Source: Pseudomonadota bacterium (GTDB taxonomy: Bacteria > Pseudomonadota > Alphaproteobacteria > Rickettsiales > SXRF01). Taken from it: a stretch of DNA of 61,021 bases. The position numbers and the translations under genes were made by a program. Below the pieces are notes generated by a model, which was not told where the DNA came from, did not search any database, and saw nothing but the letters and a program-made list of their open reading frames with translations. Position 1 is the first letter of the stretch; the number at the start of each line of letters is the position of its first letter. The DNA lies in contig JAGWIM010000002.1 in the NCBI GenBank assembly GCA_028873525.1, positions 1 to 61,021 of the forward strand, given 5' to 3'. Below are positions 14,077 through 41,489 of this stretch, piece by piece.

Positions 14077-15400
14077 AGATGTGCGGAACGCGGAATGTGA
14101 ATCGTGGGATGTGAAAAAAGATATTTCTTCCATGCGCCGCGCGCCACGTTCCACGATTCACGTAGTGAATTTCGGCTGCCGGCTCAACGGCTATGAGGGC
14201 GAGGTTATCCGGCAGCAGGCCACTGCCGCCGGGCTGGAGGACGCCATCATTTTCAATAGCTGCGCCGTCACCGCCGAGGCCGAGCGGCAGGTGCGCCAGG
14301 CTATCCGCCGCGCGCGCAAAGCCAGCCCGCAGGCGAAAATCATCGTCACCGGCTGCTCGGCGCAGGTGCATCCAGGTATGTATGCGCACATGAAAGAGGT
14401 GGATACCATCCTCGGCAACGCGGAAAAACTCGAGAAGAGCGGCTATGAATTCGCCATTGCCGGCACCGAAAAGGCGCTGGTGAATGACATCATGTCGGTC
14501 AAGGAAACAGCCCAGCATCTGGTGGCCGGTTTTGAGAGCATGACGCGCGCCTTCGTGCGGGTGCAGAACGGCTGCGACCATCGCTGCACGTTCTGCATCA
14601 TCCCCTATGGCCGCGGCAACAGCCGATCGGTGCCGATCGGCGACATCGTGGCGCAGGTGCGAACGCTGGTGGGGGCGGGCTATAAAGAAGTGGTGCTGAC
14701 CGGGGTTGATATTTCTGATTACGGCAAAGACCTACCGGGCAAGCCGACGCTCGGGGCGATGATGCGCCGGTTGCTTTCGTTAGTGCCGGAACTGCCGCGC
14801 CTGCGGCTGTCGTCTATCGATGCGGTCGAGGCGGATGAGGATTTATACCGGCTGCTGGCCGGGGAGCCGCGCCTGATGCCGCATATCCACATCAGCCTGC
14901 AGGCGGGCGACGATATGATACTCAAGCGTATGAAGCGCCGGCACTCGCGGCAGGACATCCTCGATTTTTGTGCGCGCGTGCGCTCGCTTCGCCCGGATGT
15001 GGTGTTCGGCGCGGACATCATTGCCGGATTTCCGACCGAAACCGAAACCATGTTCCAAAACAGCTTGAACCTCGTCGAGGAAGCCGGACTGACCTGGCTG
15101 CACGTATTTCCTTATTCGGCGCGTGAAGGAACGCCCGCTGCGAAAATGCCGCAGATACCGAAGAAAATTCGCAGGGAACGCGCCGCCCGCCTCCGCAAAG
15201 CGGGCGAAAAACGGGCGGCGGCGTACCTGGCGGCGCAGGTTGGAAAAATTTTGCCGGTGCTGGTTGAAAAAGAACGCGATCGCGGTCATACCGAGCATTT
15301 TGCCGTGGTGGAGCTGGACCGGGAATGTGAGCCGGGGAGCATGGTGGCGGCGAAGATTCTGGGGGTCACCCCGTATTCGCTGCAGGGGCTGGCCGCATGA
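14054..15400 (+). CDS. mtaB: Radical-SAM methylthiotransferase, MiaB-like MtaB
   Basis: The N-terminal FGCRLNGYE motif and the radical-SAM cluster motif CDHRCTFCIIP are both present. The order dapF-mtaB-ftsY matches usual synteny. The true start may be 14069 or 14132. Confidence 0.9.
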   Translation: MKGHGMSEDVRNAECESWDVKKDISSMRRAPRSTIHVVNFGCRLNGYEGEVIRQQATAAGLEDAIIFNSCAVTAEAERQVRQAIRRARKASPQAKIIVTGCSAQVHPGMYAHMKEVDTILGNAEKLEKSGYEFAIAGTEKALVNDIMSVKETAQHLVAGFESMTRAFVRVQNGCDHRCTFCIIPYGRGNSRSVPIGDIVAQVRTLVGAGYKEVVLTGVDISDYGKDLPGKPTLGAMMRRLLSLVPELPRLRLSSIDAVEADEDLYRLLAGEPRLMPHIHISLQAGDDMILKRMKRRHSRQDILDFCARVRSLRPDVVFGADIIAGFPTETETMFQNSLNLVEEAGLTWLHVFPYSAREGTPAAKMPQIPKKIRRERAARLRKAGEKRAAAYLAAQVGKILPVLVEKERDRGHTEHFAVVELDRECEPGSMVAAKILGVTPYSLQGLAA

Positions 15401-16311
15401 GTTTTCTGTCCCATCTTAAATCCGGTCTTGCCAAATCTTCGTCCAGACTGAGCGACGGCATCGCCGGGATTTTTACCAAAACGCGGCTGGGTGAGGCGTC
15501 GCTGGAGCAACTGGAAGATGTGCTGATTGAGGCCGATTTCGGCGCGAAAATGGCGGCAGAACTGGTGGCGGCGCTGGCAAAGCAAAAATTCGACAAGGAT
15601 ATTTCACCGCAAGAGGTGCGCGAGTTTCTGGCGGCGGAGATTGCGAAGATTCTTGAGCCGCCGGCGCAACCGCTGGTTGTTCCTGCGGGCGAGGGGACGA
15701 AAGTCGTTATGATGGTCGGCGTCAACGGTAACGGCAAGACGACGACCATCGGAAAATTGGCCGCCCAGTTTAAGACACAGGGATTTTCGGTGATGCTGGC
15801 GGCGGGTGATACGTTCCGTGCGGCGGCGGTCGAGCAATTGCAGGTGTGGGGCGAGCGTTCGCAGATTCCCGTGGTTACCGGCGTACCGGGGTCTGATCCG
15901 GCCAGCCTTGCCTACCGTGCTTACGAGCAGGCGCGGGCGCAACGCGTGGATGTTTTATTCATCGACACCGCTGGCAGACTGCAGAACAAGGCCAACCTGA
16001 TGGCGGAGTTGCAGAAGATTTCGCGGGTGCTGAAAAAAATTGATGCGAGCGCGCCGCACCATGTGATTCAGGTGCTCGACGCGACAACCGGCCAGAACGC
16101 GATTTCGCAAGTGCAGGCGTTTAAGGAATTGGCACAGGTGACCGGGCTTATCATCACCAAGCTCGACGGTACGGCCAAAGGCGGCATTGTCGTGGCGCTG
16201 GCACGGCAGTTCGGCCTGCCTATTCATGCGATCGGCGTAGGTGAGGGGATAGAGGACTTGGAGATATTCCGGCCGACGGGATTCGCCCGGAACCTGCTTT
16301 CACCGGAATGA
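15397..16311 (+). CDS. ftsY: Signal recognition particle receptor FtsY (short form)
   Basis: Carries the NG-domain motifs GVNGNGKTTTIGKLA, DTAGR and TKLDGTAKGG. Confidence 0.95.
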   Translation: MSFLSHLKSGLAKSSSRLSDGIAGIFTKTRLGEASLEQLEDVLIEADFGAKMAAELVAALAKQKFDKDISPQEVREFLAAEIAKILEPPAQPLVVPAGEGTKVVMMVGVNGNGKTTTIGKLAAQFKTQGFSVMLAAGDTFRAAAVEQLQVWGERSQIPVVTGVPGSDPASLAYRAYEQARAQRVDVLFIDTAGRLQNKANLMAELQKISRVLKKIDASAPHHVIQVLDATTGQNAISQVQAFKELAQVTGLIITKLDGTAKGGIVVALARQFGLPIHAIGVGEGIEDLEIFRPTGFARNLLSPE

Positions 16312-28324: not shown

Positions 28325-28495
28325 CTTTTGACGGGTGCCCGTACGCGGGGCCGGTCTTCCGATTCTGCAAATTCTTCGCAGAATCTGCCGTTTGACAGTG
28401 TGAAGAGCATTTAAGCGCAGGTGGCGATGTGTCGCAGCTTGCAGTCTTTTTCGGAAGACTGCCCACCCGCTCGCAAGAGCGGGGCATTCTTTATT
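28325..28495 (+). ncRNA. Candidate small structured RNA (about 170 nt) between ftsX and the 16S gene
   Basis: It starts downstream of the candidate promoter. It contains three hairpins: 28361-28385 (8-bp stem), 28441-28462 (8-bp stem), and 28466-28483 (7-bp stem with a GCAA tetraloop) followed by a T-rich tract (GCATTCTTTATT). No convincing ORF is present. Confidence 0.3.
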
Positions 28496-28592: not shown

Positions 28593-28636
28593 GGTGGCGT
28601 TGTGCGTGTTTCCGAAATTTTAAAGTTGTCAGTGGC

Positions 28637-28734
28637 CAGCGGCCAGCGGCCAGTAATGGCGGTTGAAGGTTGGCCTGACGATTTGAGTAAGGTGCATTTG
28701 CAAGTTGGCGTCCTTCACTGGCCGCTGGCCGCTG
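28637..28734 (+). repeat. 18-bp perfect inverted repeat in the 16S leader, built on a GGCCAGC x3 tandem
   Basis: 28637-28654 (CAGCGGCCAGCGGCCAGT) is the exact reverse complement of 28717-28734. The loop is 62 nt. The 3-prime arm ends 20 nt before the 16S start. Confidence 0.9.
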
Positions 28735-28753
28735 CGAACTGCACCCTGAATCA

Positions 28754-30242
<1,489 letters not shown>

Positions 30243-30343
30243 ATTTCAGTATGTTGGGGATCATCCTCAGCCTCTGCCTGATTAAACGAATCATCTTACA
30301 TGACATGCCGCCGCCTGCGCCTAAATGCTCACACAAACTAAAA

Positions 30344-30380
30344 AGGCCTCGGCGTAAGCTGGGGCCTTTTTGTTTGTTTG
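30344..30380 (+). terminator. Rho-independent terminator about 115 nt after the 16S 3-prime end
   Basis: The hairpin AGGCCTCggcgtaagctGGGGCCT is followed by TTTTGTTTGTTTG. Confidence 0.65.
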
Positions 30381-30410
30381 TGGCAATGGCCTATGTTATT
30401 CATAAAGCGC

Positions 30411-30653
30411 ATGAAAACGACCCGCTATTTTGAAGAAGACGTATTAGGTAAAAAACGTCCTTATATGAAACGTGAGTGGTGCATGGAGGCAATTCAGTCT
30501 CCTGACCATAAAATGCTTCAACCGGACGGCAGAGTGCGCTATTATAAATACATTGCGGAAGTACAGAAATTCGTTCGCGTTATTACGCTTGCAGATGGTG
30601 AAACCGTACATAACATATTTTTCGACCGCCGCTTTAAACCTAAGGATCATTGA
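30411..30653 (+). CDS. Small conserved hypothetical protein, probable partner (toxin-like) of the downstream DUF2283 protein
   Basis: 80 aa: MKTTRYFEEDVLGKKRPYMKREWCMEAIQSPDHKMLQPDGRVRYYKYIAEVQKFVRVITLADGETVHNIFFDRRFK. It resembles small proteins that often sit next to DUF2283 genes. The region is low-GC, and only 2 nt separate its stop from the next ATG. Confidence 0.6.
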   Translation: MKTTRYFEEDVLGKKRPYMKREWCMEAIQSPDHKMLQPDGRVRYYKYIAEVQKFVRVITLADGETVHNIFFDRRFKPKDH

Positions 30654-30655
30654 AC

Positions 30656-30871
30656 ATGAAATTCCATTACGATAAGGAAACCGACTCACTTTATATCGAT
30701 TTTATCGATGGACCGGGTGTCGATAACGTCATTGTCACTGATGACATTGTCGCTGACATCGACGTACAAGGGCGTTTAGTTGGGCTGGATATCCAACATG
30801 CCAGCCAGCAATCCGATTTGAGCAATTTTATCGTAGACGGCATGAATCCTGTTCTAAGGCCAGCGATATAA
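30656..30871 (+). CDS. DUF2283-domain protein
   Basis: MKFHYDKETDSLYIDFIDGPGVDNVIVTDDIVADIDVQGRLVGLDIQHAS matches the DUF2283 pattern (YDxExDxLYI...D...GxxVGIEI). Confidence 0.8.
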   Translation: MKFHYDKETDSLYIDFIDGPGVDNVIVTDDIVADIDVQGRLVGLDIQHASQQSDLSNFIVDGMNPVLRPAI

Positions 30872-30875
30872 ATTC

Positions 30876-30914
30876 ACCTGCGGCTGGATTACCTCCTTTC
30901 TAAGGATTTTGTTT
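30876..30914 (+). repeat. 39-bp direct repeat, copy 2 (an ectopic copy of the 16S 3-prime end)
   Basis: Perfect copy of 30204-30242. It begins 5 nt after the DUF2283 stop and ends 27 nt before the next ATG. Confidence 0.95.
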
Positions 30915-30941
30915 TTTGCGTAACAACTTTAAGGAGAAAAT

Positions 30942-31496
30942 ATGCTAAATGATCTTGAAGATAGAATTATTAAAGGTGCGAAGAAAGCGCATATCACCTA
31001 TTTAGAAATGAATGACTATTATCTTCATCATGCACCTGAGCACTTTCTCCAAAATGAGATTGCCCGTACTATTTGGCAGAAGGGCAATGGCAATGATATT
31101 TATATCGATAAGTCAAATGCTCAGGTGCTAAAAGAATTGGATTCTACCAATAAAAAAGGACGTCCTCGGGATGATGCCAGTAAGCGGTTTGATATCACGG
31201 TCTTTAAGCGCTCTGAAAAGCAAATTAAAGCTGTGATCGAGATAAAACGTGGGGATCATATAAGTTTTCAGTCACTGAGAAAGGACACAAAAAAAATAGA
31301 ACACTCTGCAAAATCTCCGAATGGAGCAAAGCTGGGCTATCTTTTAGTATATTCTGTAAGAAAAAAAGAGGAAAAAATTCGAGATGATTTCAAAAAATGG
31401 GAAAAGCGGCTGAAATGGGAATTGAGAGAGAATATAATTGAATCGGATGGCAAATGGACGTGGGGTATCGGATTATTTAAATTTAGCCTACGCTAG
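30942..31496 (+). CDS. Hypothetical protein with a PD-(D/E)xK nuclease-like motif
   Basis: 184 aa, very AT-rich, with a strong AAGGAG Shine-Dalgarno sequence 6 nt upstream. Candidate catalytic motifs are ...RFDITVF... and ...AVIEIKR... (D ... E-x-K). A terminator follows. Confidence 0.6.
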   Translation: MLNDLEDRIIKGAKKAHITYLEMNDYYLHHAPEHFLQNEIARTIWQKGNGNDIYIDKSNAQVLKELDSTNKKGRPRDDASKRFDITVFKRSEKQIKAVIEIKRGDHISFQSLRKDTKKIEHSAKSPNGAKLGYLLVYSVRKKEEKIRDDFKKWEKRLKWELRENIIESDGKWTWGIGLFKFSLR

Positions 31497-31503
31497 ATGA
31501 AAA

Positions 31504-31545
31504 GGCCTCCGTGAAAACGGGGGCTTTTGTTTGTCATTTTTTCAG
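31504..31545 (+). terminator. Rho-independent terminator, sequence-related to the one at 30344-30380
   Basis: The hairpin GGCCTCCGtgaaaaCGGGGGCT is followed by TTTGTTTGTCATTTTTT. It shares the AAAAGGCCTC...GGGGC-TTTTGTTTGT framework with the first terminator. Confidence 0.6.
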
Positions 31546-31663
31546 ATGGTATTATAAATACCGTTACTTATAACCTGTAGTCGCTAGGAGTGGGAGATGT
31601 TTACCATTGCCGGAGGAATAATACTTGCGGTGCTTATTTTGTGCGTAGTGCCTCTCCTCTTGC

Positions 31664-31933
31664 GTGCCGTTAGTGATACCGTTCAGTACCACGCCGCCCG
31701 GTGCCGAACAGCCCTTTCATGTCCGCTTCGAACCGGCGATCTACCCGTTCCTGCATCAGCATCTGCCGAGCTGGGCGAAGTGCAACATGATCAACACGGT
31801 ATCCTGCCAGCGGCTCGACCGCGTTCGGATAGGCAAAAACTACCTTTCTCCACGCATCAATGATGAAGATTTATCAAGGATTTACAAGGCTATGCTGACC
31901 GTCTTCGGGCAAAGGCTTGACAAAGTGCGGTGA
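31664..31933 (+). CDS. Hypothetical protein or gene remnant
   Basis: The 89-aa ORF has high third-position GC, unlike its AT-rich neighbours, and a terminator follows at 31975-32005. The overlapping ORF at 31597-31863 has a good SD (GGAG) and a TM-like N-terminus, so the region may be a frameshifted remnant. Confidence 0.3.
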   Translation: MPLVIPFSTTPPGAEQPFHVRFEPAIYPFLHQHLPSWAKCNMINTVSCQRLDRVRIGKNYLSPRINDEDLSRIYKAMLTVFGQRLDKVR

Positions 31934-31974
31934 AAGCCGTATAGTTACTATGTAATCCGTTAAATCGGGCTTGA

Positions 31975-32005
31975 GACCCCGCCTCCGAGCGGGGTCTAGC
32001 TTTTT
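31975..32005 (+). terminator. Rho-independent terminator
   Basis: The hairpin GACCCCGCctccgaGCGGGGTC is followed by TAGCTTTTT. Confidence 0.55.
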
Positions 32006-32065
32006 CACCCACCCCTCCACCCTCTCGCCATCCCTCCCCGGCAGCACCCGCGCAAACGGCGCTTT
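32002..32065 (+). repeat. 64-bp direct repeat, copy A (flanks the brnTA cassette)
   Basis: Aligns with 32696-32759. The last 32 bp (32034-32065, CTCCCCGGCAGCACCCGCGCAAACGGCGCTTT) are identical to 32728-32759. Confidence 0.9.
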
Positions 32066-32114
32066 CATAAGTATTTGATTAATAAAATTATTATTCTAAT
32101 AGCAAAATCAACCC

Positions 32115-32143
32115 TTGCCTCGCGTATTTACATTGTGTAAATA
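32115..32143 (+). promoter_or_regulatory. Candidate promoter for brnTA (TTGCCT-17 nt-TAAATA)
   Basis: The -35-like TTGCCT lies at 32115-32120 and the -10-like TAAATA at 32138-32143, ending 7 nt before the brnT ATG. This would make the transcript leaderless or give it a very short leader. Confidence 0.3.
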
Positions 32144-32149
32144 TGCCAG

Positions 32150-32428
32150 ATGGATTATACTTGGAATGAAGATAAAAACCGCCGTAACGTCCAGCAACAT
32201 GGAATCGCCTTCAAAGATGCGATACGCATTTTTGACGGCCCGACCGTCGAGCGGGTGGATGACCGGTTTGAATACGGAGAAATCCGGGTTTATGCCATCG
32301 GCGTGGTAAACGGATTGGAAATCACGGTGATATACACCGACGGGGACAATGACGAACGACGCATTATTTCAGCATGGAGATCAGAACCGCATGAACGACG
32401 ATATTACTGGCAACAACTCAACACCTGA
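32150..32428 (+). CDS. brnT: BrnT-family (DUF497) ribonuclease toxin
   Basis: MDYTWNEDKNRRNVQQHGIAFKDAIRIFDGP...RIISAWRSEPHERRYY matches the BrnT pattern (WDxxKxxxNxxKHGVxFxEA...RIISARxAxxxE). Confidence 0.85.
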   Translation: MDYTWNEDKNRRNVQQHGIAFKDAIRIFDGPTVERVDDRFEYGEIRVYAIGVVNGLEITVIYTDGDNDERRIISAWRSEPHERRYYWQQLNT

Positions 32429-32687
32429 TCCAGTCACCGATTGGGAACGGCTTCGCCGTCTCGATGCGACGGAAATACGGGCAGCCATTGATGCCGATCC
32501 AGATGCTCACGCTACGGACGAAGCATTCTGGAAGGATGCCAAGGTGGTGCTACCGCGTCCAAAGGAAACCATTACAATGCGGCTCGATGCCGACCTGTTG
32601 TCCTGGTTACGGCAGGAACGCGGCTACCAGACCCGCATTAACGCCATCCTTCGTGCCTACATGAAAACCCACAGTTCGCACGCGTAA
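32391..32687 (+). CDS. brnA: BrnA-type antitoxin (DUF4415-like)
   Basis: Its C-terminal ITMRLDADLLSWLRQERGYQTRINAILRAYM is the BrnA/DUF4415 signature. I chose the ATG at 32391; the ORF extends back to 32349. Confidence 0.8.
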   Translation: MNDDITGNNSTPDPVTDWERLRRLDATEIRAAIDADPDAHATDEAFWKDAKVVLPRPKETITMRLDADLLSWLRQERGYQTRINAILRAYMKTHSSHA

Positions 32688-32695
32688 TCATAAAG

Positions 32696-32759
32696 TTTTC
32701 GCCCACCACCTCCACCCCCCGCTATTCCTCCCCGGCAGCACCCGCGCAAACGGCGCTTT
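32696..32759 (+). repeat. 64-bp direct repeat, copy B
   Basis: See copy A. It begins 9 nt after the brnA stop. Confidence 0.9.
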
Positions 32760-32814
32760 GCCCCTGATTTTTCCGGCCGTTGAAAACCTGTGCGCTTTCC
32801 TATAAAATGATCTT

Positions 32815-32943
32815 ATGGCCGCAGTTATTTTTGATACGTGCAAAGCCGTCAAGCGCCCGACTTCCGAAGGAATTTCTGAGAAACAGGCGGCGACTGCCGT
32901 TGCGGCCGTCCGCGGAGGCGGATTTACGGAAAGCTCGCGCTGA
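32815..32943 (+). pseudogene. Possible truncated DUF1640-like gene remnant
   Basis: The 42-codon ORF MAAVIFDTCKAVKRPTSEGISEKQAATAVAAV... resembles the N-terminus of DUF1640 proteins (FDTxxxVKxLxxAGxxExQAEA) but stops early. The downstream frames hold only fragments. Confidence 0.3.
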
Positions 32944-33124
32944 AGAAGGCTATGAAGTCAGCGAAATCTTGTTGAGATGAGTTCAGCCGGACATTGTGCC
33001 CGCGCAACAAACATGGTGGCGCTTCATCATCCAAGTAAATGTGGCGCAGGTTTATGCCAACTTCTCCTGCAAGAACCTGGCGCCCCGGTTACGTCTCCGT
33101 TGGCGTGCTTTAGAAAATATGGAA

Positions 33125-33982
33125 TTACATCCGTTTCCCCATCTTCCCGGCTAAATCCTGAATGAATTGCCACGCCACGCGGCCGGAGCGCGCGCCCCGC
33201 GCAGCCGCCCATTCGAGTGCCTGGACGTGCAGGTTGTTCAGCGTGATGCCCAGCGTGTAATGCCCGGCGTAACACTCGACGATGGCGAGGTAGGTCTCCT
33301 GCGAGCAGGCGTGAAAGCCCAGCCACAAACCGAAGCGGTCGGACAGCGAGATTTTTTCCTCCACCGCCTCGCCCGGCTGGATGGCGGTTCGCTGTTCGTT
33401 TTCGATCATGTCGCGCGGCATCAGGTGGCGGCGGTTGGAGGTGGCGTAAAACAACACGTGGCTGGGGCGGCCTTCGATGCCGCCTTCGAGCACGCCCCTT
33501 AGCGATTTGTAGCTGCTGTCTTCGTGGTCGAACGAGAGGTCGTCGCAGAATAAAATGAACCGGCGGATGACCCAGCCGCGAAGCGCGGTGAGCAGTTGCG
33601 GCAGCGTGCGGACATCCTCGCGGTGGATTTCCACCAGCACGAGGCTATGCGGCGTTTCTCGGTTGACCGCGGCGTGCACCGCCTTGACCAGCGAGCTTTT
33701 GCCCATGCCGCGCGCACCCCACAGCAGCGCGTTATTGGCCGAATGGCCGCGCGCGAACTGCCGCGTGTTGGCCAGCAGCGTGTCCTTCGCCTGGTCGATG
33801 CCCATGAGGAGTTTCAGGTCAAGATGCGCGGTTTCAGCCACCGGCCGCAGCGCCTTGTGCGCCGGATCCCATGTGTAGGCATCGGCGCTTTTGACATCCA
33901 CCGGCTCTTCCGGCGCCGGCGCCAGTTTCTCAACGGCAACGGCGATGCGCTGCAACATGCGGATTTCGTCCTGGGAGGTCAT
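33125..33982 (-). CDS. DUF815-family AAA-type ATPase
   Basis: Contains the Walker A motif GARGMGKSSLVKA and the overall DUF815 pattern (LLWGARGTGKSS...; FCDDLSF). Confidence 0.85.
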   Translation of the reverse strand: MTSQDEIRMLQRIAVAVEKLAPAPEEPVDVKSADAYTWDPAHKALRPVAETAHLDLKLLMGIDQAKDTLLANTRQFARGHSANNALLWGARGMGKSSLVKAVHAAVNRETPHSLVLVEIHREDVRTLPQLLTALRGWVIRRFILFCDDLSFDHEDSSYKSLRGVLEGGIEGRPSHVLFYATSNRRHLMPRDMIENEQRTAIQPGEAVEEKISLSDRFGLWLGFHACSQETYLAIVECYAGHYTLGITLNNLHVQALEWAAARGARSGRVAWQFIQDLAGKMGKRM

Positions 33983-34806
33983 GAACAGGTATCCATTTTG
34001 TGATGCTCCAATATTGTTTTCGATGCGTCCGATACCGCGAGATTCTCCGGCACCGGGCGCTCGCCGCGCATCATTGCCGCCAGTTCCTGCTGGAAGGAGT
34101 TGAGTGCTGGCGCGTCGTCATCCATGGCACCGGTTTTGGCGCGGTAAAGGGAGTGGTTCATATAGGCGTTGATCTCGCGGGCGTACGGCAGGCGGAGGCC
34201 ATGTACGCCCTGCGCGACCATCGCGTGATAGATCTGCGCTGTAGTATTGACCGGATCGGCCATCATATCCGAATGCAACACGAAAATGCGCGGCAGGCCG
34301 GCCGAGGCATTAAGCAGTGACACGGCATAGGCCTCCCATAGCGCCATGCCGCGATGCAGCGACGGAATGGTATCGTACTTGCGGATACGCAGCGACTGCG
34401 CAATTTCCAGCGGATCGCGGTAAACAATGACAAAGACCGGCACCTCCAGCAGCGGCTTCCAATGCGGAAGCGTGAGGCACATATAGGGATCCTTCATCAC
34501 CCAGGGTCGGTGTGAGTCCATATTGAACACGATGGTCTTCATCTGCAGGGGCAGTGCCGGTCCCTGGTGCGGCGGCTTCCAGTCGATCACCCACGGCGTG
34601 ACGTTCAGCGCGCGCCAGTCCGGGTTATGCAGCTTGAGCAATGATACATTGCATTCCACCACGTCGCGGCGCTCCCAGTAACCCTTCGGATTATCCTGGT
34701 TAAAGCCGCACATGCCTTCCGGGCCGACATACGCGCCCATCATGTTGATGAGCCGCGTCGTCAGCGAGGTGCCGGAGCGGTGCATTCCCAGAATAATAAT
34801 CTGCAT
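33979..34806 (-). CDS. Sulfotransferase-family protein
   Basis: A 5-prime-PSB-like motif (ILGMHRSGTSLTT) and a 3-prime-PB-like motif (VYRDPLEIAQSL) are present. I chose the ATG at 34806; the ORF extends to a TTG at 34827. It overlaps the DUF815 start by 4 nt. Confidence 0.8.
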   Translation of the reverse strand: MQIIILGMHRSGTSLTTRLINMMGAYVGPEGMCGFNQDNPKGYWERRDVVECNVSLLKLHNPDWRALNVTPWVIDWKPPHQGPALPLQMKTIVFNMDSHRPWVMKDPYMCLTLPHWKPLLEVPVFVIVYRDPLEIAQSLRIRKYDTIPSLHRGMALWEAYAVSLLNASAGLPRIFVLHSDMMADPVNTTAQIYHAMVAQGVHGLRLPYAREINAYMNHSLYRAKTGAMDDDAPALNSFQQELAAMMRGERPVPENLAVSDASKTILEHHKMDTCS

Positions 34807-34915
34807 GGATAAGGATGATAGCGTCAAAAATACGGCAACGCCAGCGCCGGAAGAAATAAAAATGTCATGGCATTAACCATGAGGAGCGATACAATGCCGC
34901 CTTGGATTATCCACA

Positions 34916-35700
34916 ATGTTTATTGCCGTGACTGAAAAACGCATTATTTTCACCGTTACTTCGGGACGTAGCGGCACGAAATATCTGACCCATCTCCTGA
35001 CCGGCTTGCCCGACGTTGCAGCGGAACATGAGCCGACGCCCGAATTTAGTTCGTGTATGCCACAGGCGCGGCATGATCCGGCGCTGGCCACACGTTTTCT
35101 GACGGAGCAGAAATTGCCGCACATCCATGCCGTCCCGCAGTCAATCTATGTGGAAACAAGCCATTACGTCGGCAAAGGGTTCCTCGACTCGCTGCTGGAA
35201 CTGGGTGTTGTACCCGACCTGATTATGTTACGCCGCGATCCAAGACAAGTAGCCAGCAGTTGGTTCCTGATCGGCGGCGGAGTTAAGAAACTACATGACG
35301 GTGTATTTTATAAGAATATGCTTGGTCCGCATGAGCCGAATTTTCTTCCGGCGCGGCATTGGGATGCCTGGAATGATTATCAGCTATGCTATTGGTATGC
35401 GCTGGAGACACATTTCCGCATCCGGCATTATGCGTCGCTTATCGCTGTGCACGGCGGAAAAATCTTCGATACATCGCTGCCGGAGCTTGCCGAAGGCGAC
35501 GACTATAAACCTCTGCTGGAATGGCTTGAGGTGCCGGAAGATATTATCAGGATACGTGTGGGCGATGCCTCTTTCAGGCGTACTAAAATCAATGACATGC
35601 AAAGCAAAAAAGTCATCAAAGGTCGTGAGCAGGAACTTGCAGCCCTCGACCTGGATCGTCTGGAAGCACAGGTGTTTGCCGATTGCGGGATTTCATGCAG
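34916..35700 (+). other. Domain: sulfotransferase-like N-terminal module
   Basis: TVTSGRSGTKYLTHLL is a PAPS 5-prime-phosphosulfate-binding-like loop, and LRRDPRQVASSWF is a 3-prime-phosphate-binding-like RDP motif. Confidence 0.6.
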
Positions 35701-38700
35701 ACAGGCGGACGATGTGGTGTGGTCCGTGGCGCCAGTGTCGGGTAAACAACCGTGCCTCTTCGTCAACATTGCCAGCTACCGCGATCCGGAATGCCAATGG
35801 ACGGTGAAGGATTTGTTTGAAAAGGCGGCGCGTCCGGAACGAATCAATGTCGGCATCTGCTGGCAGTCTGATCCGGAGGCGGATCAGGAGTGCTTTACTG
35901 TTCCCTCGCCGCGGCCGGAGCAGACGCGCATCATCAATTATCATATCCGCGACAGCAAGGGCGCCAACTGGGCGCGGGCACAGGCCATGACATTGAAGCA
36001 GGGCGAGGAATATGTGCTGGTCATCGATTCGCACATGCGGTTTGAGCCAGGCTGGGATGAATTATTGCTGGAAGCGCTGAAACGTTGCCCGTCTGAAAAA
36101 GCGATGCTTACCGCCTGGCTGCCAGGATACAAGCCGCCGGATAAGCTGGATCCTGACGGCGGCAGGCTGGCGCGGCTGCGTATCTCAAGCCTGCAATGGG
36201 ACGGCAGCGACGCGCAGCTGACGAATCTCAACTGCTTCCATGCGCCTGCCGATGCCGTGCGCGGACGCATGGATCCATCCTGCTCGCTGGTGGCCAACTG
36301 CATGTTCGGTCCGGCGAAGGCATTTGAGGAAGTACCGTTCGACCCGCATATCGATTTCTGGGGCGATGAAATCAACCAGTCGGCGCGGCTGTGGACGCAT
36401 GGCTGGGATTTTTTCCAGCTCGACCGCCGCGTGCTGTACCATTACTGGGATCCGGAAAATATTAAAGACCGTGAAACCTATCGTGATAGAAAAAACCCAC
36501 GTCACCAGCGCGCGCGCAGGCGTAACCTGCACCTGTTGCTTATCGAGCGATCGGAGGACAGAAAAGCGATTGCCGAGATCGAAAAATATCCGCTGGGGAC
36601 AATACGCGCCATTGCTGATTACTGGCGCTTCATGGATGTTGACCTTGCCAAAAAAGTCATTGGGGAGCGAGGTGCGCGCGGGCAGTGGAAAAATTTGCCT
36701 GCGGCGGTGGGCAAGCCGCCGCGCATCTTCGTCAACATCGCCAGCTATCGTGATCCGGAAACGCAGGCGACGGTGGACGATTTATTCGCCAAGGCGACGC
36801 ATCCGGAGCGCATCCATGTGGGCATCTGCCTGCAGCTGGATCCGAAGGAAGACGTTGCCTGCACGGTGCGTCCCGAAGGCTATCCGGGAAAGATGCGCAT
36901 CACGCAGGTGCATCATAAAGCAAGTAAAGGCGCCGGGTGGGCGAGGGCGGAGGCGCTGCAATTATGGGACGGCGAGGAATATATACTGGCCATTGATTCA
37001 CACATGCGTTTCGAGCCGGGATGGGACGAGGCGCTGATCGATATGCAGAGGCGTTGCCCGCCGCGATCTTTGCTCAGCACGTACGTGCCGCGCTACACGC
37101 CGCCCGACAGGCGCGACCAGTTTCCCGGCCAGATACTGCGCATCCGCATACATGGGCTGGCTGAGGCGGGAAATCCGCAGACGCTGCATAATACCAAGAT
37201 ACCGGTGCCGCTGACCGACAAGGAACGCAGCGGACTTTACCGCACGCCGTTCGTCATCGCCAATTTCATTTTCTGCCCGGCCGGAGTGCTGCGGGAAGTG
37301 CCGTTCGACCCGTATATCCGTTTCTGGGGCGACGAGGCCACGCTCTCGGCGCGGCTGTGGACGCACGGCTACGATATCTACCAGCCGGATAAAACCGTGG
37401 CCTATCATTACTGGCGGCGCGACGAACTGGTGCCCATCCAACCCTACCGGAATATGGATACGCCGGAAAGCCGCTGTTCGCACGCGCGTATCCGGCATCT
37501 GCTCGGCTTTGAAGCGACGACAAACCAAGAAGCGCTGGCGGAAATTGAGAAATATGGATTAGGAACGGCGCGGCGGCTGGAGGATTTATGGACATTCGCC
37601 GGTATCGACTGGCAGCGTCGAACCGTCAGTCAGAACGCACTGGAGGGACGGTGGAATACGGCAAAGAAGATAGAGAGAATATTCGTCAACATCGCCAGCT
37701 ACCGCGACGTCGAATGCCAGTGGACGGTAAATGACCTGTTCGAGAAAGCGGCGCACCCGGAGCGCGTATTCGTCGGGCTTTGCTGGCAGTATGACCCGGC
37801 GGAAGACAAGCATTGTTTTCAAATACCGCCGTCCAGGCCGGAACAGGTGCGGCTGCTGCCGGTTGATTGGCGCGATGCCGGGGGCGTGTGCTGGGCGCGG
37901 CATCAGGCGCAGCAATTATGGGAAGGCGAGGAATACACGCTGATGATCGACAGCCATATGCGTTTCGTGCCGGGCTGGGATGATCTGATGATGGCAGAGC
38001 TGGCCGCCTGTGATTCCAAAAAGCCGGTGCTGTCCTGTAGCCCGCCGCCCTACACGCCGCCGAATCACTTAAGTAAAAACATGAACCCCACCGTGCGGCG
38101 CGTCAAGCCCTTCATGGCCGACGGCAACATACGCTGCCAGGGCGAGATGCTCGACCGCGTGCCGGAGCATCCGCTGCGCGGCGCGTTCATCGTCGCCAAT
38201 TTCGTTTTCTCGCGCTCGGAGATTATCCGCGAGGTGCCATATGATCCGTACCTCTATTTCGACCAGGAAGAAATCACCTACGCCGCGCGGCTTTACACGC
38301 ACGGCTGGGACGTGTTTTCCACGCGGCGGCAATGCCTTTATCACTTCTACAACGACCCCAAAACCTCGGTGCGGCCGCTGCACTGGAGCGACATGAGCAA
38401 GTCGGACAAGGCCGATAACGAACGCATCAAATACCTGTATGCCCGCGGGCTGGCGCGATTCAACCATCTGACCGGCTATAAACTTTCAACCGATCCGGAT
38501 GTAACGGCGGCACTGGATAAATACGGATTCGGAAAAATGCGGACGCTGGCGGAATTCGAGGCGTTCACCGGCGTTGATTTCAAGCGCAAGATTGCTTCGG
38601 AACGGGCGCTGCGCGGCGGGTTCATCGAGGATTTGCAGAAATACCGCGACCGGCCGTTCTTCGTGCCGGAGATTGATAAAAAACCGGCGCCCGCGCCCAT

Positions 38701-39889
38701 GGCCGCGCCGCCGAAAGCAGGCAGGCTGAATGTTGGCGACTTCATTCCAATGTTCGACGTGGTGGATGACAACGGACAGCCGCGTGCCGTCGAGATTTAC
38801 GCCGGACGGCATTCTTTGCTGTTTTTTCTCTCGGCGGAGGATGTCGCTTACGCCCGACAATGTATGGCCGCACTGCAGCGGCTGATACCGCGTGGGATGC
38901 ACGAAAAAATCTGGCTGATATACGTTGTCAACGCGCCGGTTGAACAGTTGAAAATGCTGAAGCAGCAGATCGGTACGGGGCATAGCCTGTGGGCCGATCC
39001 GGAAGGAAAAATAGCGCAGGCCTTCAGCGTTGCGGCCCCGGCGGGCTTCCTGCTCAACCAGAATCTTAAAATATTGCATCGCTATGACCGGATGCCGCCG
39101 GAGGCAATGGCATCTTCCATTGTCGCTGACGGGCAGAACGCGCTGGAGTCCTACCGCTTCAAGAACCGCGTTCCGCGCACCGTCGCCGAATTGCCGCCGG
39201 CGCTGATCGTGCCGGACGCCTTCACGCCGGCGCTCTGCGAAAAATGCATCGCCTCTTTCCGCAGCGGCCATAGCTTCGAGGGCACGGTCGGCGCCGAGAA
39301 CAAGCTGGCTTACCGCCCCAGCGCAAAGATTCGTACCGACCATATCGTATCGTCGCCGCTGCTGGAGGAAATTGACGATAAATTATCGCGCAGCCTGTTT
39401 CCCGAGATACGCAAGGTGTTCGGCTTTGAGGTGGCGTACCGCGAACTGTATAAAGTCGGGCTTTACACCGGCGAAAAAGGCGGATTTTTCCAGCGGCACC
39501 GCGATAATTTCGAGCCGCCGCTGGGCTATCGCCGCGTGGCGATGACGCTGCATCTCAACAATGATTATGAAGGCGGCGGGCTGCATTTCCCCGAATATGA
39601 CGATAACATCTATCGCCCGGTCGCGGGCAGCGCCATCGCCTTTTCCTGCGCGACCTTGCATGAGGCGCGGCCGGTGACGCGCGGCGAGCGCTTCGTGCTG
39701 GTCGGATTTTTCCACGGCGAACAGGACGAGGCCTACCGCCGTCAGTACCTGGCAGAGAAGGGTAGTCCGCTCAAGATTAAGGATTACACACCGTTGCTGG
39801 CGCCGGATCCGCCGATCCGGCAGGGACGCGATTTCTACCGCAACTGGCGCAAAAAATATGTGCGTTTTGATGGACAGGACAAAAAATGA
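34916..39889 (+). CDS. 1,657-aa multidomain protein: sulfotransferase-like, 3x GlcNAc-transferase-like, redoxin-like and 2OG-Fe(II) oxygenase domains
   Basis: A single uninterrupted ORF with no signal peptide or TM segment. The domain motifs are listed in the sub-features below. Confidence 0.9.
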   Translation: MFIAVTEKRIIFTVTSGRSGTKYLTHLLTGLPDVAAEHEPTPEFSSCMPQARHDPALATRFLTEQKLPHIHAVPQSIYVETSHYVGKGFLDSLLELGVVPDLIMLRRDPRQVASSWFLIGGGVKKLHDGVFYKNMLGPHEPNFLPARHWDAWNDYQLCYWYALETHFRIRHYASLIAVHGGKIFDTSLPELAEGDDYKPLLEWLEVPEDIIRIRVGDASFRRTKINDMQSKKVIKGREQELAALDLDRLEAQVFADCGISCRQADDVVWSVAPVSGKQPCLFVNIASYRDPECQWTVKDLFEKAARPERINVGICWQSDPEADQECFTVPSPRPEQTRIINYHIRDSKGANWARAQAMTLKQGEEYVLVIDSHMRFEPGWDELLLEALKRCPSEKAMLTAWLPGYKPPDKLDPDGGRLARLRISSLQWDGSDAQLTNLNCFHAPADAVRGRMDPSCSLVANCMFGPAKAFEEVPFDPHIDFWGDEINQSARLWTHGWDFFQLDRRVLYHYWDPENIKDRETYRDRKNPRHQRARRRNLHLLLIERSEDRKAIAEIEKYPLGTIRAIADYWRFMDVDLAKKVIGERGARGQWKNLPAAVGKPPRIFVNIASYRDPETQATVDDLFAKATHPERIHVGICLQLDPKEDVACTVRPEGYPGKMRITQVHHKASKGAGWARAEALQLWDGEEYILAIDSHMRFEPGWDEALIDMQRRCPPRSLLSTYVPRYTPPDRRDQFPGQILRIRIHGLAEAGNPQTLHNTKIPVPLTDKERSGLYRTPFVIANFIFCPAGVLREVPFDPYIRFWGDEATLSARLWTHGYDIYQPDKTVAYHYWRRDELVPIQPYRNMDTPESRCSHARIRHLLGFEATTNQEALAEIEKYGLGTARRLEDLWTFAGIDWQRRTVSQNALEGRWNTAKKIERIFVNIASYRDVECQWTVNDLFEKAAHPERVFVGLCWQYDPAEDKHCFQIPPSRPEQVRLLPVDWRDAGGVCWARHQAQQLWEGEEYTLMIDSHMRFVPGWDDLMMAELAACDSKKPVLSCSPPPYTPPNHLSKNMNPTVRRVKPFMADGNIRCQGEMLDRVPEHPLRGAFIVANFVFSRSEIIREVPYDPYLYFDQEEITYAARLYTHGWDVFSTRRQCLYHFYNDPKTSVRPLHWSDMSKSDKADNERIKYLYARGLARFNHLTGYKLSTDPDVTAALDKYGFGKMRTLAEFEAFTGVDFKRKIASERALRGGFIEDLQKYRDRPFFVPEIDKKPAPAPMAAPPKAGRLNVGDFIPMFDVVDDNGQPRAVEIYAGRHSLLFFLSAEDVAYARQCMAALQRLIPRGMHEKIWLIYVVNAPVEQLKMLKQQIGTGHSLWADPEGKIAQAFSVAAPAGFLLNQNLKILHRYDRMPPEAMASSIVADGQNALESYRFKNRVPRTVAELPPALIVPDAFTPALCEKCIASFRSGHSFEGTVGAENKLAYRPSAKIRTDHIVSSPLLEEIDDKLSRSLFPEIRKVFGFEVAYRELYKVGLYTGEKGGFFQRHRDNFEPPLGYRRVAMTLHLNNDYEGGGLHFPEYDDNIYRPVAGSAIAFSCATLHEARPVTRGERFVLVGFFHGEQDEAYRRQYLAEKGSPLKIKDYTPLLAPDPPIRQGRDFYRNWRKKYVRFDGQDKK
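35750..36715 (+). other. Domain: GlcNAc-transferase-like (Pfam GlcNAc/PF11397-like) repeat 1
   Basis: LFVNIASYRDPECQWTVKDLFEKAARPERINVGICWQ ... VLVIDSHMRFEPGWD ... FWGDEINQSARLWTHGWDFF ... AEIEKYPLG. Confidence 0.7.
36716..37675 (+). other. Domain: GlcNAc-transferase-like repeat 2
   Basis: IFVNIASYRDPETQATVDDLFAKATHPERIHVGICLQ ... ILAIDSHMRFEPGWD ... FWGDEATLSARLWTHGYDIY ... AEIEKYGLG. Confidence 0.7.
37676..38590 (+). other. Domain: GlcNAc-transferase-like repeat 3
   Basis: IFVNIASYRDVECQWTVNDLFEKAAHPERVFVGLCWQ ... TLMIDSHMRFVPGWD ... YFDQEEITYAARLYTHGWDVF ... ALDKYGFG. Confidence 0.7.
38720..39090 (+). other. Domain: thioredoxin-fold / AhpC-TSA-like (redoxin-like)
   Basis: VGDFIPMFDVVDDNGQPRAVEIYAGRHSLLFFLSAED...LWADPEGKIAQAFSV follows the peroxiredoxin layout. 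The canonical T-x-x-C peroxidatic motif is not evident. Confidence 0.5.
39190..39720 (+). other. Domain: 2OG-Fe(II) oxygenase (prolyl-4-hydroxylase-like, PF13640-like)
   Basis: The facial triad is H1528-x-D1530 (QRHRDN, nt 39497-39505) plus H1582 (nt 39659-39661). The 2OG-binding Arg lies in HEARPVTRGERFVLVGFF. Confidence 0.75.
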
Positions 39890-39905
39890 TTCTTATGGTG
39901 CGGGC

Positions 39906-41489
39906 ATGACGGATATTAAGGAATTAGCGCTGGCGAGCCAGGCTTGGCCGTTTGAGGAAGCGCGCAAGCTGGTGGAGCGCTTCAAGAGCGGCGCGCCCGC
40001 CAAGGGCTGCGTGTTGTTTGAAACCGGCTACGGGCCTTCGGGGCTGCCGCATATCGGCACCTTCATGGAAGTCTTCCGCACGACGCTGGTGCGCCATGCG
40101 TTTCAGCAGATGTCCGATATTCCGACGCGGCTGTTCGCCGTGTCGGACGATATGGACGGGCTGCGCAAAGTGCCGGACAATATTCCGAATCAGGGCATGG
40201 TGCGCGCCCATCTCGGCTTGCCTTTGACCGCCATTCCCGACCCGTTCGGCACGCACGAGAGCTACGGCGCGCATATGAACGCGCGGCTGTGTAAGTTCCT
40301 CGATAATTACGGCTTCGAATACGAATTTCTAAGCTCGACCGAGCAATATAAAAAAGGCGTCTATGATGAAAAATTGCTGGAGGCGTTGAAGCAGTACGAC
40401 AAGATCATGGACGTGATGCTGCCGACGCTGGGCGAGGAGCGCCGCGCCACCTACAGCCCGTTCATGCCGATCTCGCCCAGGACCGGGCAGGTGCTGCAGG
40501 TACCGGTCATCCGCCGCGATATGACGAAAGGCACGATTACCTATAAGGAAGAGGATGGCGAGGAAGTGACGGTGCCGGTGACCGGCGGCCACTGCAAGCT
40601 GCAATGGAAACCCGATTTCGGCATGCGCTGGGCGGCGCTGGACGTGGATTTCGAGATGTACGGCAAGGACCACCAGCCGAACGCGCCGCTCTACAATGCC
40701 ATCTGCCATATCCTCGGCGGGCGCGGGCCGGAGCAATATGTGTATGAGATGTTCCTCGACGCCGAGGGCAGGAAAATCTCCAAGTCGAAAGGCAACGGCA
40801 TCAGCATCGAGGACTGGCTGCGTTATGCGCCGCCGGAGAGCCTCAGCTATTACATGTACCAGTCGCCGCGCAAGGCCAAGCGGCTCTATTTCGATGTCAT
40901 CCCGCGCGCGGTGGACGATTACCAGAGTTTTCTCGAAAAATTCGAGCAGGAAGACCCGGCGAAGCAACTGAATAACCCGGTGTGGCACATCCACGGCGGA
41001 AACCCGCCGAAGCCGGAGGGCATTCCCGGATTCAACCTGCTGCTGAATCTGGCGGGCGTGTCGCAGGCCGAGGACCCGAAAGCGCTGTGGGGGTATGTGG
41101 CGCGCTACCGGCCGCAATTCTCGCCTGAGACCCACCCGTTCCTTGATAAGCTGGTGCAGGGCGCGGTGAATTACTATCACGATTTCATCAAGCCGACGAA
41201 AAAATACCGGCTGCCGACCGAGCCGGAAGCCAAGGCGCTGGGGGAACTGGCCGACTGGCTGGAAAAAGCGCCTCCTGCGGCGACGCCTGAGGAAATACAG
41301 AACGAGATTTATGAAATCGGCAAAAAGGATTTCGCCGATAATCTCAAAGGCTGGTTCTCCGCCATGTATGAAACCCTGCTCGGCCAGCCGCAGGGCCCGC
41401 GCATGGGTTCATTCGTCGCGCTGTATGGCAAGGCAGAGACAGTGCGGCTGATACGGCGCGTATTGGCGAAAGAGGATCTGGCGGCGTGA
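39906..41489 (+). CDS. lysK: Lysyl-tRNA synthetase, class I
   Basis: Class I LysRS pattern with LPHIGT (HIGH) and KISKSKG (KMSKS). I chose the start MTDIKELA at 39906. Confidence 0.95.
   Translation: MTDIKELALASQAWPFEEARKLVERFKSGAPAKGCVLFETGYGPSGLPHIGTFMEVFRTTLVRHAFQQMSDIPTRLFAVSDDMDGLRKVPDNIPNQGMVRAHLGLPLTAIPDPFGTHESYGAHMNARLCKFLDNYGFEYEFLSSTEQYKKGVYDEKLLEALKQYDKIMDVMLPTLGEERRATYSPFMPISPRTGQVLQVPVIRRDMTKGTITYKEEDGEEVTVPVTGGHCKLQWKPDFGMRWAALDVDFEMYGKDHQPNAPLYNAICHILGGRGPEQYVYEMFLDAEGRKISKSKGNGISIEDWLRYAPPESLSYYMYQSPRKAKRLYFDVIPRAVDDYQSFLEKFEQEDPAKQLNNPVWHIHGGNPPKPEGIPGFNLLLNLAGVSQAEDPKALWGYVARYRPQFSPETHPFLDKLVQGAVNYYHDFIKPTKKYRLPTEPEAKALGELADWLEKAPPAATPEEIQNEIYEIGKKDFADNLKGWFSAMYETLLGQPQGPRMGSFVALYGKAETVRLIRRVLAKEDLAA

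Follow-up and report, generated by a model that had tools for sequence, protein, structure and literature searches.

A hypervariable, toxin-antitoxin-rich islet follows the unlinked 16S rRNA gene in a clade of uncultured Alphaproteobacteria

The stretch of DNA analysed here (the window, 61,021 nt of contig JAGWIM010000002.1) carries a small islet of genes at 30.2-33.1 kb, directly behind a 16S rRNA gene (rrs). Comparison with the corresponding loci of other organisms, numbered L083-L119, shows that uncultured Alphaproteobacteria of one clade, in which the 16S gene is unlinked, carry behind the rrs terminator a hypervariable islet of low GC content that is rich in toxin-antitoxin (TA) modules. 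The best explanation, with a probability of roughly 0.55, is that the islet is a recombination hot spot: modules are inserted duplicatively, driven by homology or microhomology, and relatives exchange them. The 16S gene is taken as unlinked because the window contains no 23S, 5S or tRNA genes. Elsewhere the window consists of ordinary chromosomal DNA, on which recA, H+-PPase, AcrB, citrate synthase, sdhAB, ftsY and dapF are found. The GC content of the window is about 0.58 overall, against 0.44-0.45 at 30-32 kb.

Relatives of the locus came from metagenomes. Among GTDB species genomes, the DUF815 gene at the end of the islet has a best match of 65% identity, and no 16S gene lies near any of the matches. 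A search with the islet's 80-aa protein, p80, led to L083, an alphaproteobacterial metagenome-assembled genome (MAG) with 16S, a homologous trailer, a terminator, p80 and DUF2283. Metagenome contigs scanned with a 26-mer across the 16S end and trailer gave 28 loci whose 16S genes are 91-97.5% identical to that of the window. This search is specific because of a T in the 3' end of 16S. There, at 30214-30229, the window reads GGATTACCTCCTTTCT, as do all 28 relatives, with T where most bacteria have C in GGATCACCTCC; the ending is a signature of the clade. After the conserved trailer and terminator, content differs from locus to locus and is usually of low GC for 1-4 kb. The 60 small open reading frames (ORFs) lying at most 3 kb downstream of 16S in the relatives include, by Pfam, ParE (5), DUF2283 (4), ribbon-helix-helix (3), PemK (2), TacA and helix-turn-helix families, and ankyrin-repeat and glycosyltransferase proteins are among the products of the 18 larger uncharacterised ORFs that lie further on.

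The closest relative, L102, illustrates the extent of this variability. Its 16S is 97.5% identical to that of the window, yet the two loci have only mazF and DUF815 in common. The order in L102 is 16S, small secreted proteins, a spacer element E, full-length mazF, a terminator, E again, small conserved genes, dapF, mtaB, ftsY and DUF815 on the opposite strand, with 9.4 kb between 16S and DUF815 against 2.9 kb in the window. L102 lacks p80/DUF2283, the 184-aa gene and brnTA. Relatives thus do not carry an identical and stable arrangement, the finding that the earlier reading of the window from its sequence alone (the sequence-only reading) had named as speaking against cassette capture. The DUF378-dapF-mtaB-ftsY block lies downstream of the islet in L102 (5289-10439) and in other relatives; in the window it lies at 12764-16209, about 12.5 kb upstream of 16S, and is without the Hc1 histone-like, porin-like and conserved 64-aa genes. 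The window lineage is taken to be rearranged because of this position and these missing genes.

The features of the window's locus are the following.

28398-28436, + strand: 5' arm of the pre-16S processing stem in the rrs leader, pairing with 30299-30335
28754-30227, + strand: rrs, the 16S rRNA gene, full length (Rfam RF00177, 1548 bits)
30204-30245, + strand: repeat R, copy 1; the last 24 nt of 16S, including the anti-Shine-Dalgarno (anti-SD) sequence, and the first 18 nt of the trailer
30228-30380, + strand: native 16S trailer, with a small hairpin, the processing-stem 3' arm (30299-30335) and the rrs terminator Term1 (30339-30380)
30411-30653, + strand: p80, an 80-aa protein of no Pfam family, toxin-like partner of DUF2283
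30656-30871, + strand: DUF2283 protein, putative antitoxin-like partner (Pfam PF10049, E 1e-12)
30876-30917, + strand: repeat R', orphan copy 2; 16S 3' end and 18 nt of trailer, 4 nt past the DUF2283 stop
30942-31496, + strand: 184-aa orphan with a PD-(D/E)xK-like motif (D84, E100-x-K102)
31501-31540, + strand: terminator Term2, of the rrs-terminator type (hairpin 31501-31528; terminator scan)
31673-31933, + strand: mazF/pemK remnant, 5'-truncated (ORF 31664-31933), covering positions 39-105 of 109 of Pfam PemK and codons ~48-133
31974-31997, + strand: terminator Term3, 3' of mazF (terminator scan)
32002-32071, + strand: E copy 1 (E1), after mazF and Term3; positional orthologue of the L102 E at 4586-4649
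32105-32687, + strand: brnTA module, with promoter/operator, brnT (32150-32428) and brnA (32391-32687; ORF from 32349)
32696-32760, + strand: E copy 2 (E2), downstream of brnTA
32815-32943, + strand: DUF1640-like truncated remnant (weak Pfam hit)
33125-33982, - strand: DUF815 AAA-type ATPase gene, the backbone gene that closes the islet (Pfam E 1e-100)

All the genes, the three terminators and both repeat pairs named in the sequence-only reading are present, far beyond chance. The modules among them are mobile. Homologues of p80 number 184 (76-85 aa), and a DUF2283 gene adjoins p80 in every context fetched, so that the two form a putative TA-type pair, a two-gene unit that moves among unrelated contexts. 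Other organisms have pairs 78-85% identical in amino acids to that of the window behind gshA, behind flhB and ahead of an aminotransferase gene; divergent pairs (42-51% identity) are found downstream of 16S in L107 and L089/L098 and, in L108, ahead of a decayed 16S fragment. The DUF2283 protein is 85-89% identical to copies at the same position in L083, L104 and L113. The brnTA genes overlap with the toxin gene first and match their families well (BrnT, PF04365, E 7e-18, 65.2 against a cut-off of 34.5; BrnA, PF14384, E 1e-12, 48.3 against 26.1), the layout expected of a type II BrnT/BrnA module, which they are predicted to form. BrnT has 1627 homologues at E<=1e-20, in very different phyla. 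Nucleotide homology of brnTA to copies in unrelated contexts (L117, and L118/L119 by the plasmid gene trfA) covers only ~32105-32671, a span that begins at the promoter/operator and stops shortly before brnA ends. brnTA carries its own conserved promoter/operator, and promoter-like sites stand ahead of other units; these are matches to a consensus only. Finally, a parDE module occurs at different offsets in five arrays.

Levels of similarity fit this mobility. Between the window and L113, whose 16S genes are 92% identical, p80 and DUF2283 are 85% and 89% identical in amino acids, and between the window and L102, at 97.5% 16S identity, the DUF815 proteins, which hold the same relative position, are 75% identical. 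By these comparisons, cassette genes are more similar between loci than backbone genes. The proposal of small mobile modules in a hypervariable position is thus upheld by the difference from L102 and by the occurrence of the same modules in unrelated contexts.

The first repeat pair begins within the 16S gene itself. R, which includes the anti-SD sequence CCTCCTTTCT within the last 24 nt of 16S, and R' agree at 41 of 42 positions, 39 of them as an exact match, with a spacing of 672 and 0 matches in 100 shuffles; R' has a variant of its own, T for A at position 40. The sequence-only reading had correctly seen a repeat pair at this spacing, but gave its length as 39 bp and overlooked its origin in the 16S 3' end. 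Between R and R' lie 630 nt that comprise only the trailer, the terminator, p80 and DUF2283, with no integrase gene inside. Homologues of this trailer and terminator are present in all 28 relatives and in L083, and Term1 is 93% identical to the rrs terminator of L092. Because a native, conserved trailer, stem arm and rrs terminator stand between the two copies, the first unit is no captured cassette, self-contained and set between repeats of its own, contrary to what had been suggested. Three distant relatives have the order 16S-trailer-terminator-p80-DUF2283 without a second copy of the 16S end.

Downstream of R', the 184-aa gene is followed by Term2. Term1 (hairpin 30339-30372) and Term2 have a common AAAAGGCCTC...GGGGC(C)TTTTGTTTGT framework, and with Term3 they make up the three + strand terminators, two of one framework, that had been described. 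The segment around Term2 (31497-31549) shares 83% identity with the L112 rrs terminator and only ~79% with Term1, and because Term2 is nearer to the terminator of another lineage, the stretch from R' to Term2 looks like a foreign or paralogous rrs 3' region. Term3 is kept after mazF in L102, and L114 has a similar hairpin. A role for R' as an anti-SD decoy for the Shine-Dalgarno sequence of the 184-aa gene was considered and set aside: pairing is predicted, but the stability of the fold equals that of shuffles (z = +0.64), and in L109 an R'-like copy precedes no gene. On the other side of 16S, the leader block with the processing-stem 5' arm is conserved in L083 and other relatives. An inverted repeat, GGCCAGCGGCCAGCGGCCAG / CTGGCCGCTGGCCGCTG (28624-28749, 30-nt arms, 83% complementary), lies just 5' of mature 16S and is missing at the same place in L083.

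The 16S genes of several relatives have peculiarities of their own. Those of L102 (~529-614), L107 (~1139-1286), L112 (~1439-1730) and L099 (~8256-8764) align to the 16S of the window as two separate segments; the 85-500 additional nt around positions 70-180 are possibly intervening sequences in a variable helix. L108 carries at 1415-1665 a decayed, 5'-truncated 16S, the last ~250 nt at 85.7% identity with a 22-nt insertion, whose trailer and terminator are intact; it is preceded by a 22-codon 5' fragment of mazF (237-300), p80/DUF2283 (332-785) and E (787-850). The organism of L108 must have another functional rrs, and its locus shows that partial 16S copies arise and decay here. L100, a 2255-nt contig with two convergent 16S 3' ends within 2.2 kb, is probably a fold-back chimera of assembly or amplification and for that reason was left out as evidence.

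The second repeat pair, E, surrounds brnTA. Taken as 64 nt (32002-32065 and 32696-32759), E1 and E2 have a spacing of 694 and an ungapped identity of 84%, with 0 matches in shuffles. The 64-bp direct repeat described around brnTA is therefore real and correctly spaced, with an identical right end of 33 nt, not 32. All 10 mismatches are confined to the 31 nt on the left, the 33 nt on the right being free of them (Fisher P = 3e-4), and the left half of E2 is nearer to the E alleles of L101 and L102 than to E1. E1 and E2 are thus a mosaic and not a clean target duplication, a pattern to be expected from recombination or conversion between two alleles.

A profile search (nhmmer) found six copies of E in four genomes (two each in the window and L102, one each in L101 and L108), all in the orientation of 16S, and none outside this 16S-downstream locus type in all DNA compared. 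The L102 copies flank mazF, and those of L101 and L108 directly follow the DUF2283 stop; brnTA loci elsewhere are without E. E is a locus-specific spacer and not part of the mobile brnTA module. The view of the 64-bp unit as the bracket of brnTA itself does not survive, since E also flanks mazF in L102 and is missing from brnTA elsewhere.

Other identities for E were tried. As a common dispersed repeat it fails, the core 24-mer having 0 exact matches in JGI metagenome contigs and the 61 kb of the window holding two copies, both in the islet; with no palindrome and a restriction to one locus type, E is not the common dispersed REP (repetitive extragenic palindromic) element that had been named as a possible refutation. 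As a structured RNA or attC site it also fails, with no Rfam match and an RNAalifold consensus of -3.6 kcal/mol that has 0 compensatory pairs and no conserved hairpin. A coding remnant is not supported either: the reading frames seem conserved through conservation of the DNA, and some copies contain stops.

Repeat-flanked units are not peculiar to the window. No fewer than six other genomes of the clade have, downstream of 16S, cassette-sized units between direct repeats of 28-100 nt. Counting pairs of >=28 nt, >=90% identity and a spacing of 200-2500 nt gives 10 in 88.5 kb downstream of 16S (0.8 expected), none in 49 kb on the upstream side and 11 across 1.17 Mb of loci from other Alphaproteobacteria (0.09 per 10 kb), an enrichment of ~12-fold (Poisson P = 2e-8). 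The repeat-bracketed, cassette-sized unit pointed out in the sequence-only reading is, by this count, a recurring feature of the clade. In L098, a repeat of 87 nt comprising a trailer arm and the rrs terminator (+62..+148 from the 16S end, 86/87 identical) brackets p80/DUF2283, its second copy lying 2 nt past the stop, and a third copy of the terminator follows the next unit. In L109, whose 16S is ~91% identical to that of the window, a degenerate second copy of the 16S end (-52..+18) lies 1.3 kb downstream, after genes for 229-aa and 110-aa proteins (a 1.2-kb insert). This copy and R' have the same right boundary, +18, and different left boundaries, -52 and -24. L092 has 28-nt repeats around parDE, and L090, L104 and L114 have 37-, 100- and 53-nt pairs around other units. 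The duplicated sequence is different each time (the 16S end, trailer and terminator, E, an element S, others), with left boundaries at -52, -24 and +62. Six of eight repeat units end in TT just past a hairpin, a post hoc observation.

Two further kinds of element populate these loci. Element S, ~50 nt with a hairpin (ATACATTGGCGTTAGCCACAAACCGCTTCTTTCGGGAAGCGGAAAAT), is found in L114 (2448-2500 and 3386-3438), in L108 (938-984), in L103 (+986..+1028 after 16S) and in L102 (~4787-4812). In L108 it has a promoter-like site before it and a terminator after it, and S may be a small RNA; the window is without it. REP-like palindromes, GTCATTCCCGCG...CGGGAATC and variants, occur in the 16S trailers and inter-cassette spacers of L097, L104, L106, L111, L112 and L116. 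Near the islet of the window, the other direct repeats (35757/36726 and 36002/36971) are due to internal repeats of a 1657-aa protein (34916-39889) with three GlcNAc-transferase (PF11397) repeats and AhpC-TSA and 2OG-Fe(II) oxygenase domains.

Since 16S regions are classic chimera points of metagenome assembly, the order seen in the window could be an artefact in which a 16S-like 42-mer joined contigs of different strains or organisms, so that the succession of R, first unit, R' and second unit exists in no cell. The GC content of the islet, unlike that of the backbone, would agree with this, as would the other assembly of the organism, which breaks inside R'. That assembly, MAG contig JAGWKI010000073.1 (GCA_028873305.1), is 100% identical to window 30901-40753, starts inside R' and has the R'-specific base. 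It shows that the 16S-like sequence breaks short-read assembly at R', and it supports the junction of R' with the 184-aa gene, the variant base now being seen in an independent contig. The window itself runs unbroken from 16S through R' into the 100%-matching stretch. Because both R' junctions lie within 42 nt, which single reads would span, and because analogous structures exist in the independently assembled L109 and L098, an artefact is very improbable.

A more substantial challenge is that the locus records decay and not capture. A former second rrs copy, arisen for instance by tandem duplication of rrs and the cassette region, could have left R' and Term2 behind once deletions had occurred and the 184-aa gene had taken the place of its trailer, an origin that is possible but rather unlikely. 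The layout of R'...Term2 as an rrs 3' region would follow directly, in L108 a 16S that is decayed and truncated at its 5' end but has kept its trailer stands behind p80/DUF2283-E, and the window lineage is rearranged relative to L102, with dapF-mtaB-ftsY upstream of 16S. One old duplication in situ does not fit the numbers, however: R' matches R at 41 of 42 positions, whereas Term2 is only ~79% identical to Term1 and nearer to another lineage. On the same account, the E copies and the pairs of the relatives would be ordinary duplicated spacers or small elements of the REP or MITE (miniature inverted-repeat transposable element) type, uninformative on how cassettes enter. This too is somewhat unlikely. 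REP-like hairpins and S do recur in the spacers of several loci, but the pairs are enriched 12-fold downstream of 16S specifically, with none in 49 kb upstream, E is confined to this locus type in all DNA compared, and the 87-nt duplication of L098 (86/87) brackets its TA module exactly, 2 nt past the stop, as is typical of an insertion.

The second challenge concerns the agent of insertion. The Pfam scan found no recombinase in the islet or in the 60 small and 18 larger downstream ORFs of the relatives, and none is among the top 25 Pfam families listed for the window's 33 large ORFs; the window does encode RecA. Inverted-repeat scans gave terminators only and no attC-type palindromes, and E has no conserved hairpin. 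The sequence-only reading had noted that integrase and attC-type palindromes are lacking, and these scans agree with it. No shared core or hairpin was found at the repeat boundaries. A site-specific system encoded in trans (integron-like, Xer/dif-module-like or HUH-type) would make the repeats att-type sites, an alternative that is quite unlikely. Its target sites would be the 16S 3' end at position +18 of the trailer, E at its right-hand end and the T-runs that follow terminators, an equally doubtful assignment. The common +18 end of R' and the L109 copy in taxa whose 16S genes are ~91% identical is what such a system would leave, and the identical 33-nt right half of E1 and E2 resembles a common core; E stands on the 3' side of different cassettes in four genomes, and the TT ends after hairpins, though post hoc, point the same way. 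Yet neither the 78 surveyed ORFs of the relatives nor the window's top Pfam families include an integrase, resolvase or transposase, the duplicated sequences (28-100 nt) are unrelated to each other, their left boundaries vary, E has neither a conserved hairpin or palindrome nor an Rfam match, and brnTA elsewhere is without E. The earlier suggestion of site-specific or microhomology-mediated capture is accordingly left with its better half, microhomology: capture of the integron-like, site-specific kind is not supported, given the variable duplicated sequences and left boundaries, with no shared core and no recombinase in the surveyed ORFs.

Under the preferred reading, a hot spot for duplicative insertion and exchange, the islet holds selfish two-gene modules of TA type (p80/DUF2283 and brnTA), together with a dead mazF, the nuclease-like orphan, which is rare, and what is left of one further gene. 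Relatives would exchange modules by RecA-dependent recombination in sequences conserved on either side, on the left the 16S gene and its trailer and on the right short conserved spacers such as E and core genes. New modules would enter by recombinase-independent duplicative insertion, either through Campbell-type integration of a circularised fragment via 30-180 nt of local homology or through template switching at hairpins, and such insertion would place the local target sequence on both sides of the insert. R' and Term2 may then be leftovers of a duplicated or foreign rrs 3' region, with the 184-aa gene now in the place of the trailer. Likewise, E1 and E2 may be a resident spacer and a second, partly different allele brought with brnTA or converted around it. 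Addiction to the TA modules would protect them from deletion between the flanking repeats. Anatomy, variability, module mobility, recurring flanking repeats and the lack of a recombinase in the surveyed local ORFs are direct observations; the route of insertion and the stabilising effect of the TA modules are inferred.

Several points weigh against this explanation. No pair of empty and filled sites was found for any insertion, and duplication upon insertion is for this reason deduced and not seen. The identical +18 right boundary of R' and the L109 copy is not predicted by a random process of homology or microhomology. Campbell-type integration explains the spread of a repeat-flanked cassette, not its first origin. 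Recombination anchored within 16S would be expected to leave a donor-like tract, and the 3' part of the window's 16S contains none, apparently with no trace of such recombination. The 100-nt pair of L104, the S element of L114 and the REP-like GTCATTCC...GGAATC hairpins may simply be small dispersed elements lodged in spacers. The window covers 61 kb of the genome, and a recombinase could act in trans from elsewhere. Finally, the metagenomic relatives are assemblies, some of which (L100) look chimeric.

Two other routes of entry were considered. The constant +18 end with variable 5' truncation prompted the idea of a retro-copy, in which a cDNA switches template to the 3' end of pre-16S; this conflicts with the promoter inside the brnTA module and with the +62..+148 duplication of L098. 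The arrays might instead reflect a previously undescribed form of cassette capture at the 3' end of unlinked 16S genes, in which modules of promoter and gene are inserted past hairpin/T-run sites (+18, the rrs terminator, the end of E) and 28-180 nt of target are duplicated. Such a process is unlikely; if real, it would involve a trans-acting enzyme or hairpin-triggered template switching and would amount to integron-like growth without integrase or attC, with mainly TA modules retained.

The individual proteins of the islet add to this picture. No islet protein has a match in NCBIfam or PADLOC. The AlphaFold2 (AF2) model of p80 (pLDDT 92.8) has an alpha-alpha-beta4 fold of two helices and a four-stranded sheet, with no significant match in the PDB; matches to HigB2 and MqsR are insignificant (prob <= 0.13). 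For its partner, a role as FseA, an activator of excision of integrative and conjugative elements (ICEs), was considered. FseA was ascribed to DUF2283 in one paper (PMC4755241) and to DUF2285 in a later one of the same line (PMC10359603). Since the later paper names the domain DUF2285 and the frame relation of p80 and DUF2283 varies among loci, this identity was rejected.

The 184-aa orphan has no Pfam, NCBIfam or PADLOC match, and a search of 5.8 billion proteins gave just two homologues of it, at 49% and 45% identity. All three sequences have D84 and E100-I-K102 unchanged; in the model D84 stands at the start of beta2 and E/K within beta3. The model has alpha-beta-beta-beta-alpha-beta topology, compatible with a PD-(D/E)xK core, with a pLDDT of 76 from a three-sequence alignment, and its best TM score in the PDB is 0.39, with no significant fold match. 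A nature as a 16S-associated homing gene is not borne out by the homologues: the 49% identical one lies away from any 16S and the other on a 1.2-kb contig without context.

The ORF downstream of Term2, first described as ambiguous or a remnant, is indeed a remnant and is now identified as the C-terminal two thirds of PemK/MazF. It is 89% identical in nucleotides and 95% in amino acids to the full-length mazF of L102 (4057-4458) and counts as a remnant because its PemK domain is incomplete and the first ~47 codons of the L102 gene are missing. A short ORF with a strongly hydrophobic start, MFTIAGGIILAVLILCVVPLLLRAV (31597-31672), abuts the truncated mazF at the site of the missing codons. Beyond E2, the DUF1640-like remnant had rightly been called truncated: a full-length homologue of 104 aa in L114 is 79% identical over codons 1-24, and the segment 32763-32889 is 78% identical to L114 in nucleotides.

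Among known systems, the islet appears to belong to an existing kind, the variable islet anchored at an RNA gene. In SAR11, hypervariable region 2 (HVR2) lies between the 16S-tRNA-tRNA-23S cassette and the 5S rRNA gene and holds ~50 genes for glycosyltransferases, membrane proteins and hypothetical proteins (PMC3448164). Both have variable content at a fixed place by an rRNA gene, in a deep alphaproteobacterial clade with a split rRNA operon, and no integrase. HVR2 is much larger and is not described with duplicated rRNA-gene ends, whereas the islet spans 1-4 kb, consists of TA modules and remnants, starts after the terminator of an unlinked 16S and has duplicated pieces of the 16S end and terminator. 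Integron arrays, among them chromosomal superintegrons with their many TA cassettes, also have head-to-tail units of mostly one or two genes that include TA modules, an element at the 3' side and variable content; the islet, by contrast, lacks intI, attI and Pc, its E is not an imperfect palindrome, its repeats differ per unit and each cassette appears to have its own promoter.

The pdif modules of Acinetobacter plasmids carry TA pairs such as brnTA between 28-bp XerC-spacer-XerD sites, usually inverted. They share with the islet small discrete modules, often TA, short repeated sites and the lack of a module-borne recombinase, but the repeats of the islet are direct, 28-100 nt long, mutually unrelated and without a dif-like dyad. 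Islands at tRNA and tmRNA genes, whose attL/attR direct repeats restore the 3' end of the RNA gene, likewise leave an orphan 3' end of a stable-RNA gene downstream of the insert while the RNA gene stays intact; the islet differs in having no integrase, a varying left boundary, a conserved native trailer inside the repeats and inserts of 0.5-1.3 kb. Homology-facilitated illegitimate recombination and Campbell-type integration via short homology are mechanisms defined in the laboratory. As in the islet, a conserved anchor (here 16S) stands by foreign DNA, junctions are without a defined site and the homologous segment is duplicated; the process depends on RecA, which this genome encodes. Literature searches found no natural array described as built repeatedly by such integration at an rRNA gene. 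They also found no description of TA arrays or 16S-end duplications downstream of an unlinked 16S, which is not proof of absence.

The findings call for caution with metagenomic data, as orphan copies of the 16S end (with the anti-SD) and decayed 16S fragments near the real 16S break short-read assemblies, and such pieces may confuse rRNA annotation and binning. For the biology of the clade, unlinking of the 16S gene places a highly conserved body beside freely variable DNA, which here serves as a small, fast-turnover depot of TA modules across the clade. If the flanking duplications are footprints of insertion, the islet would be a case of natural cassette accumulation independent of a recombinase. 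This would give selfish gene pairs a route between species whose 16S genes are 91-97% identical.

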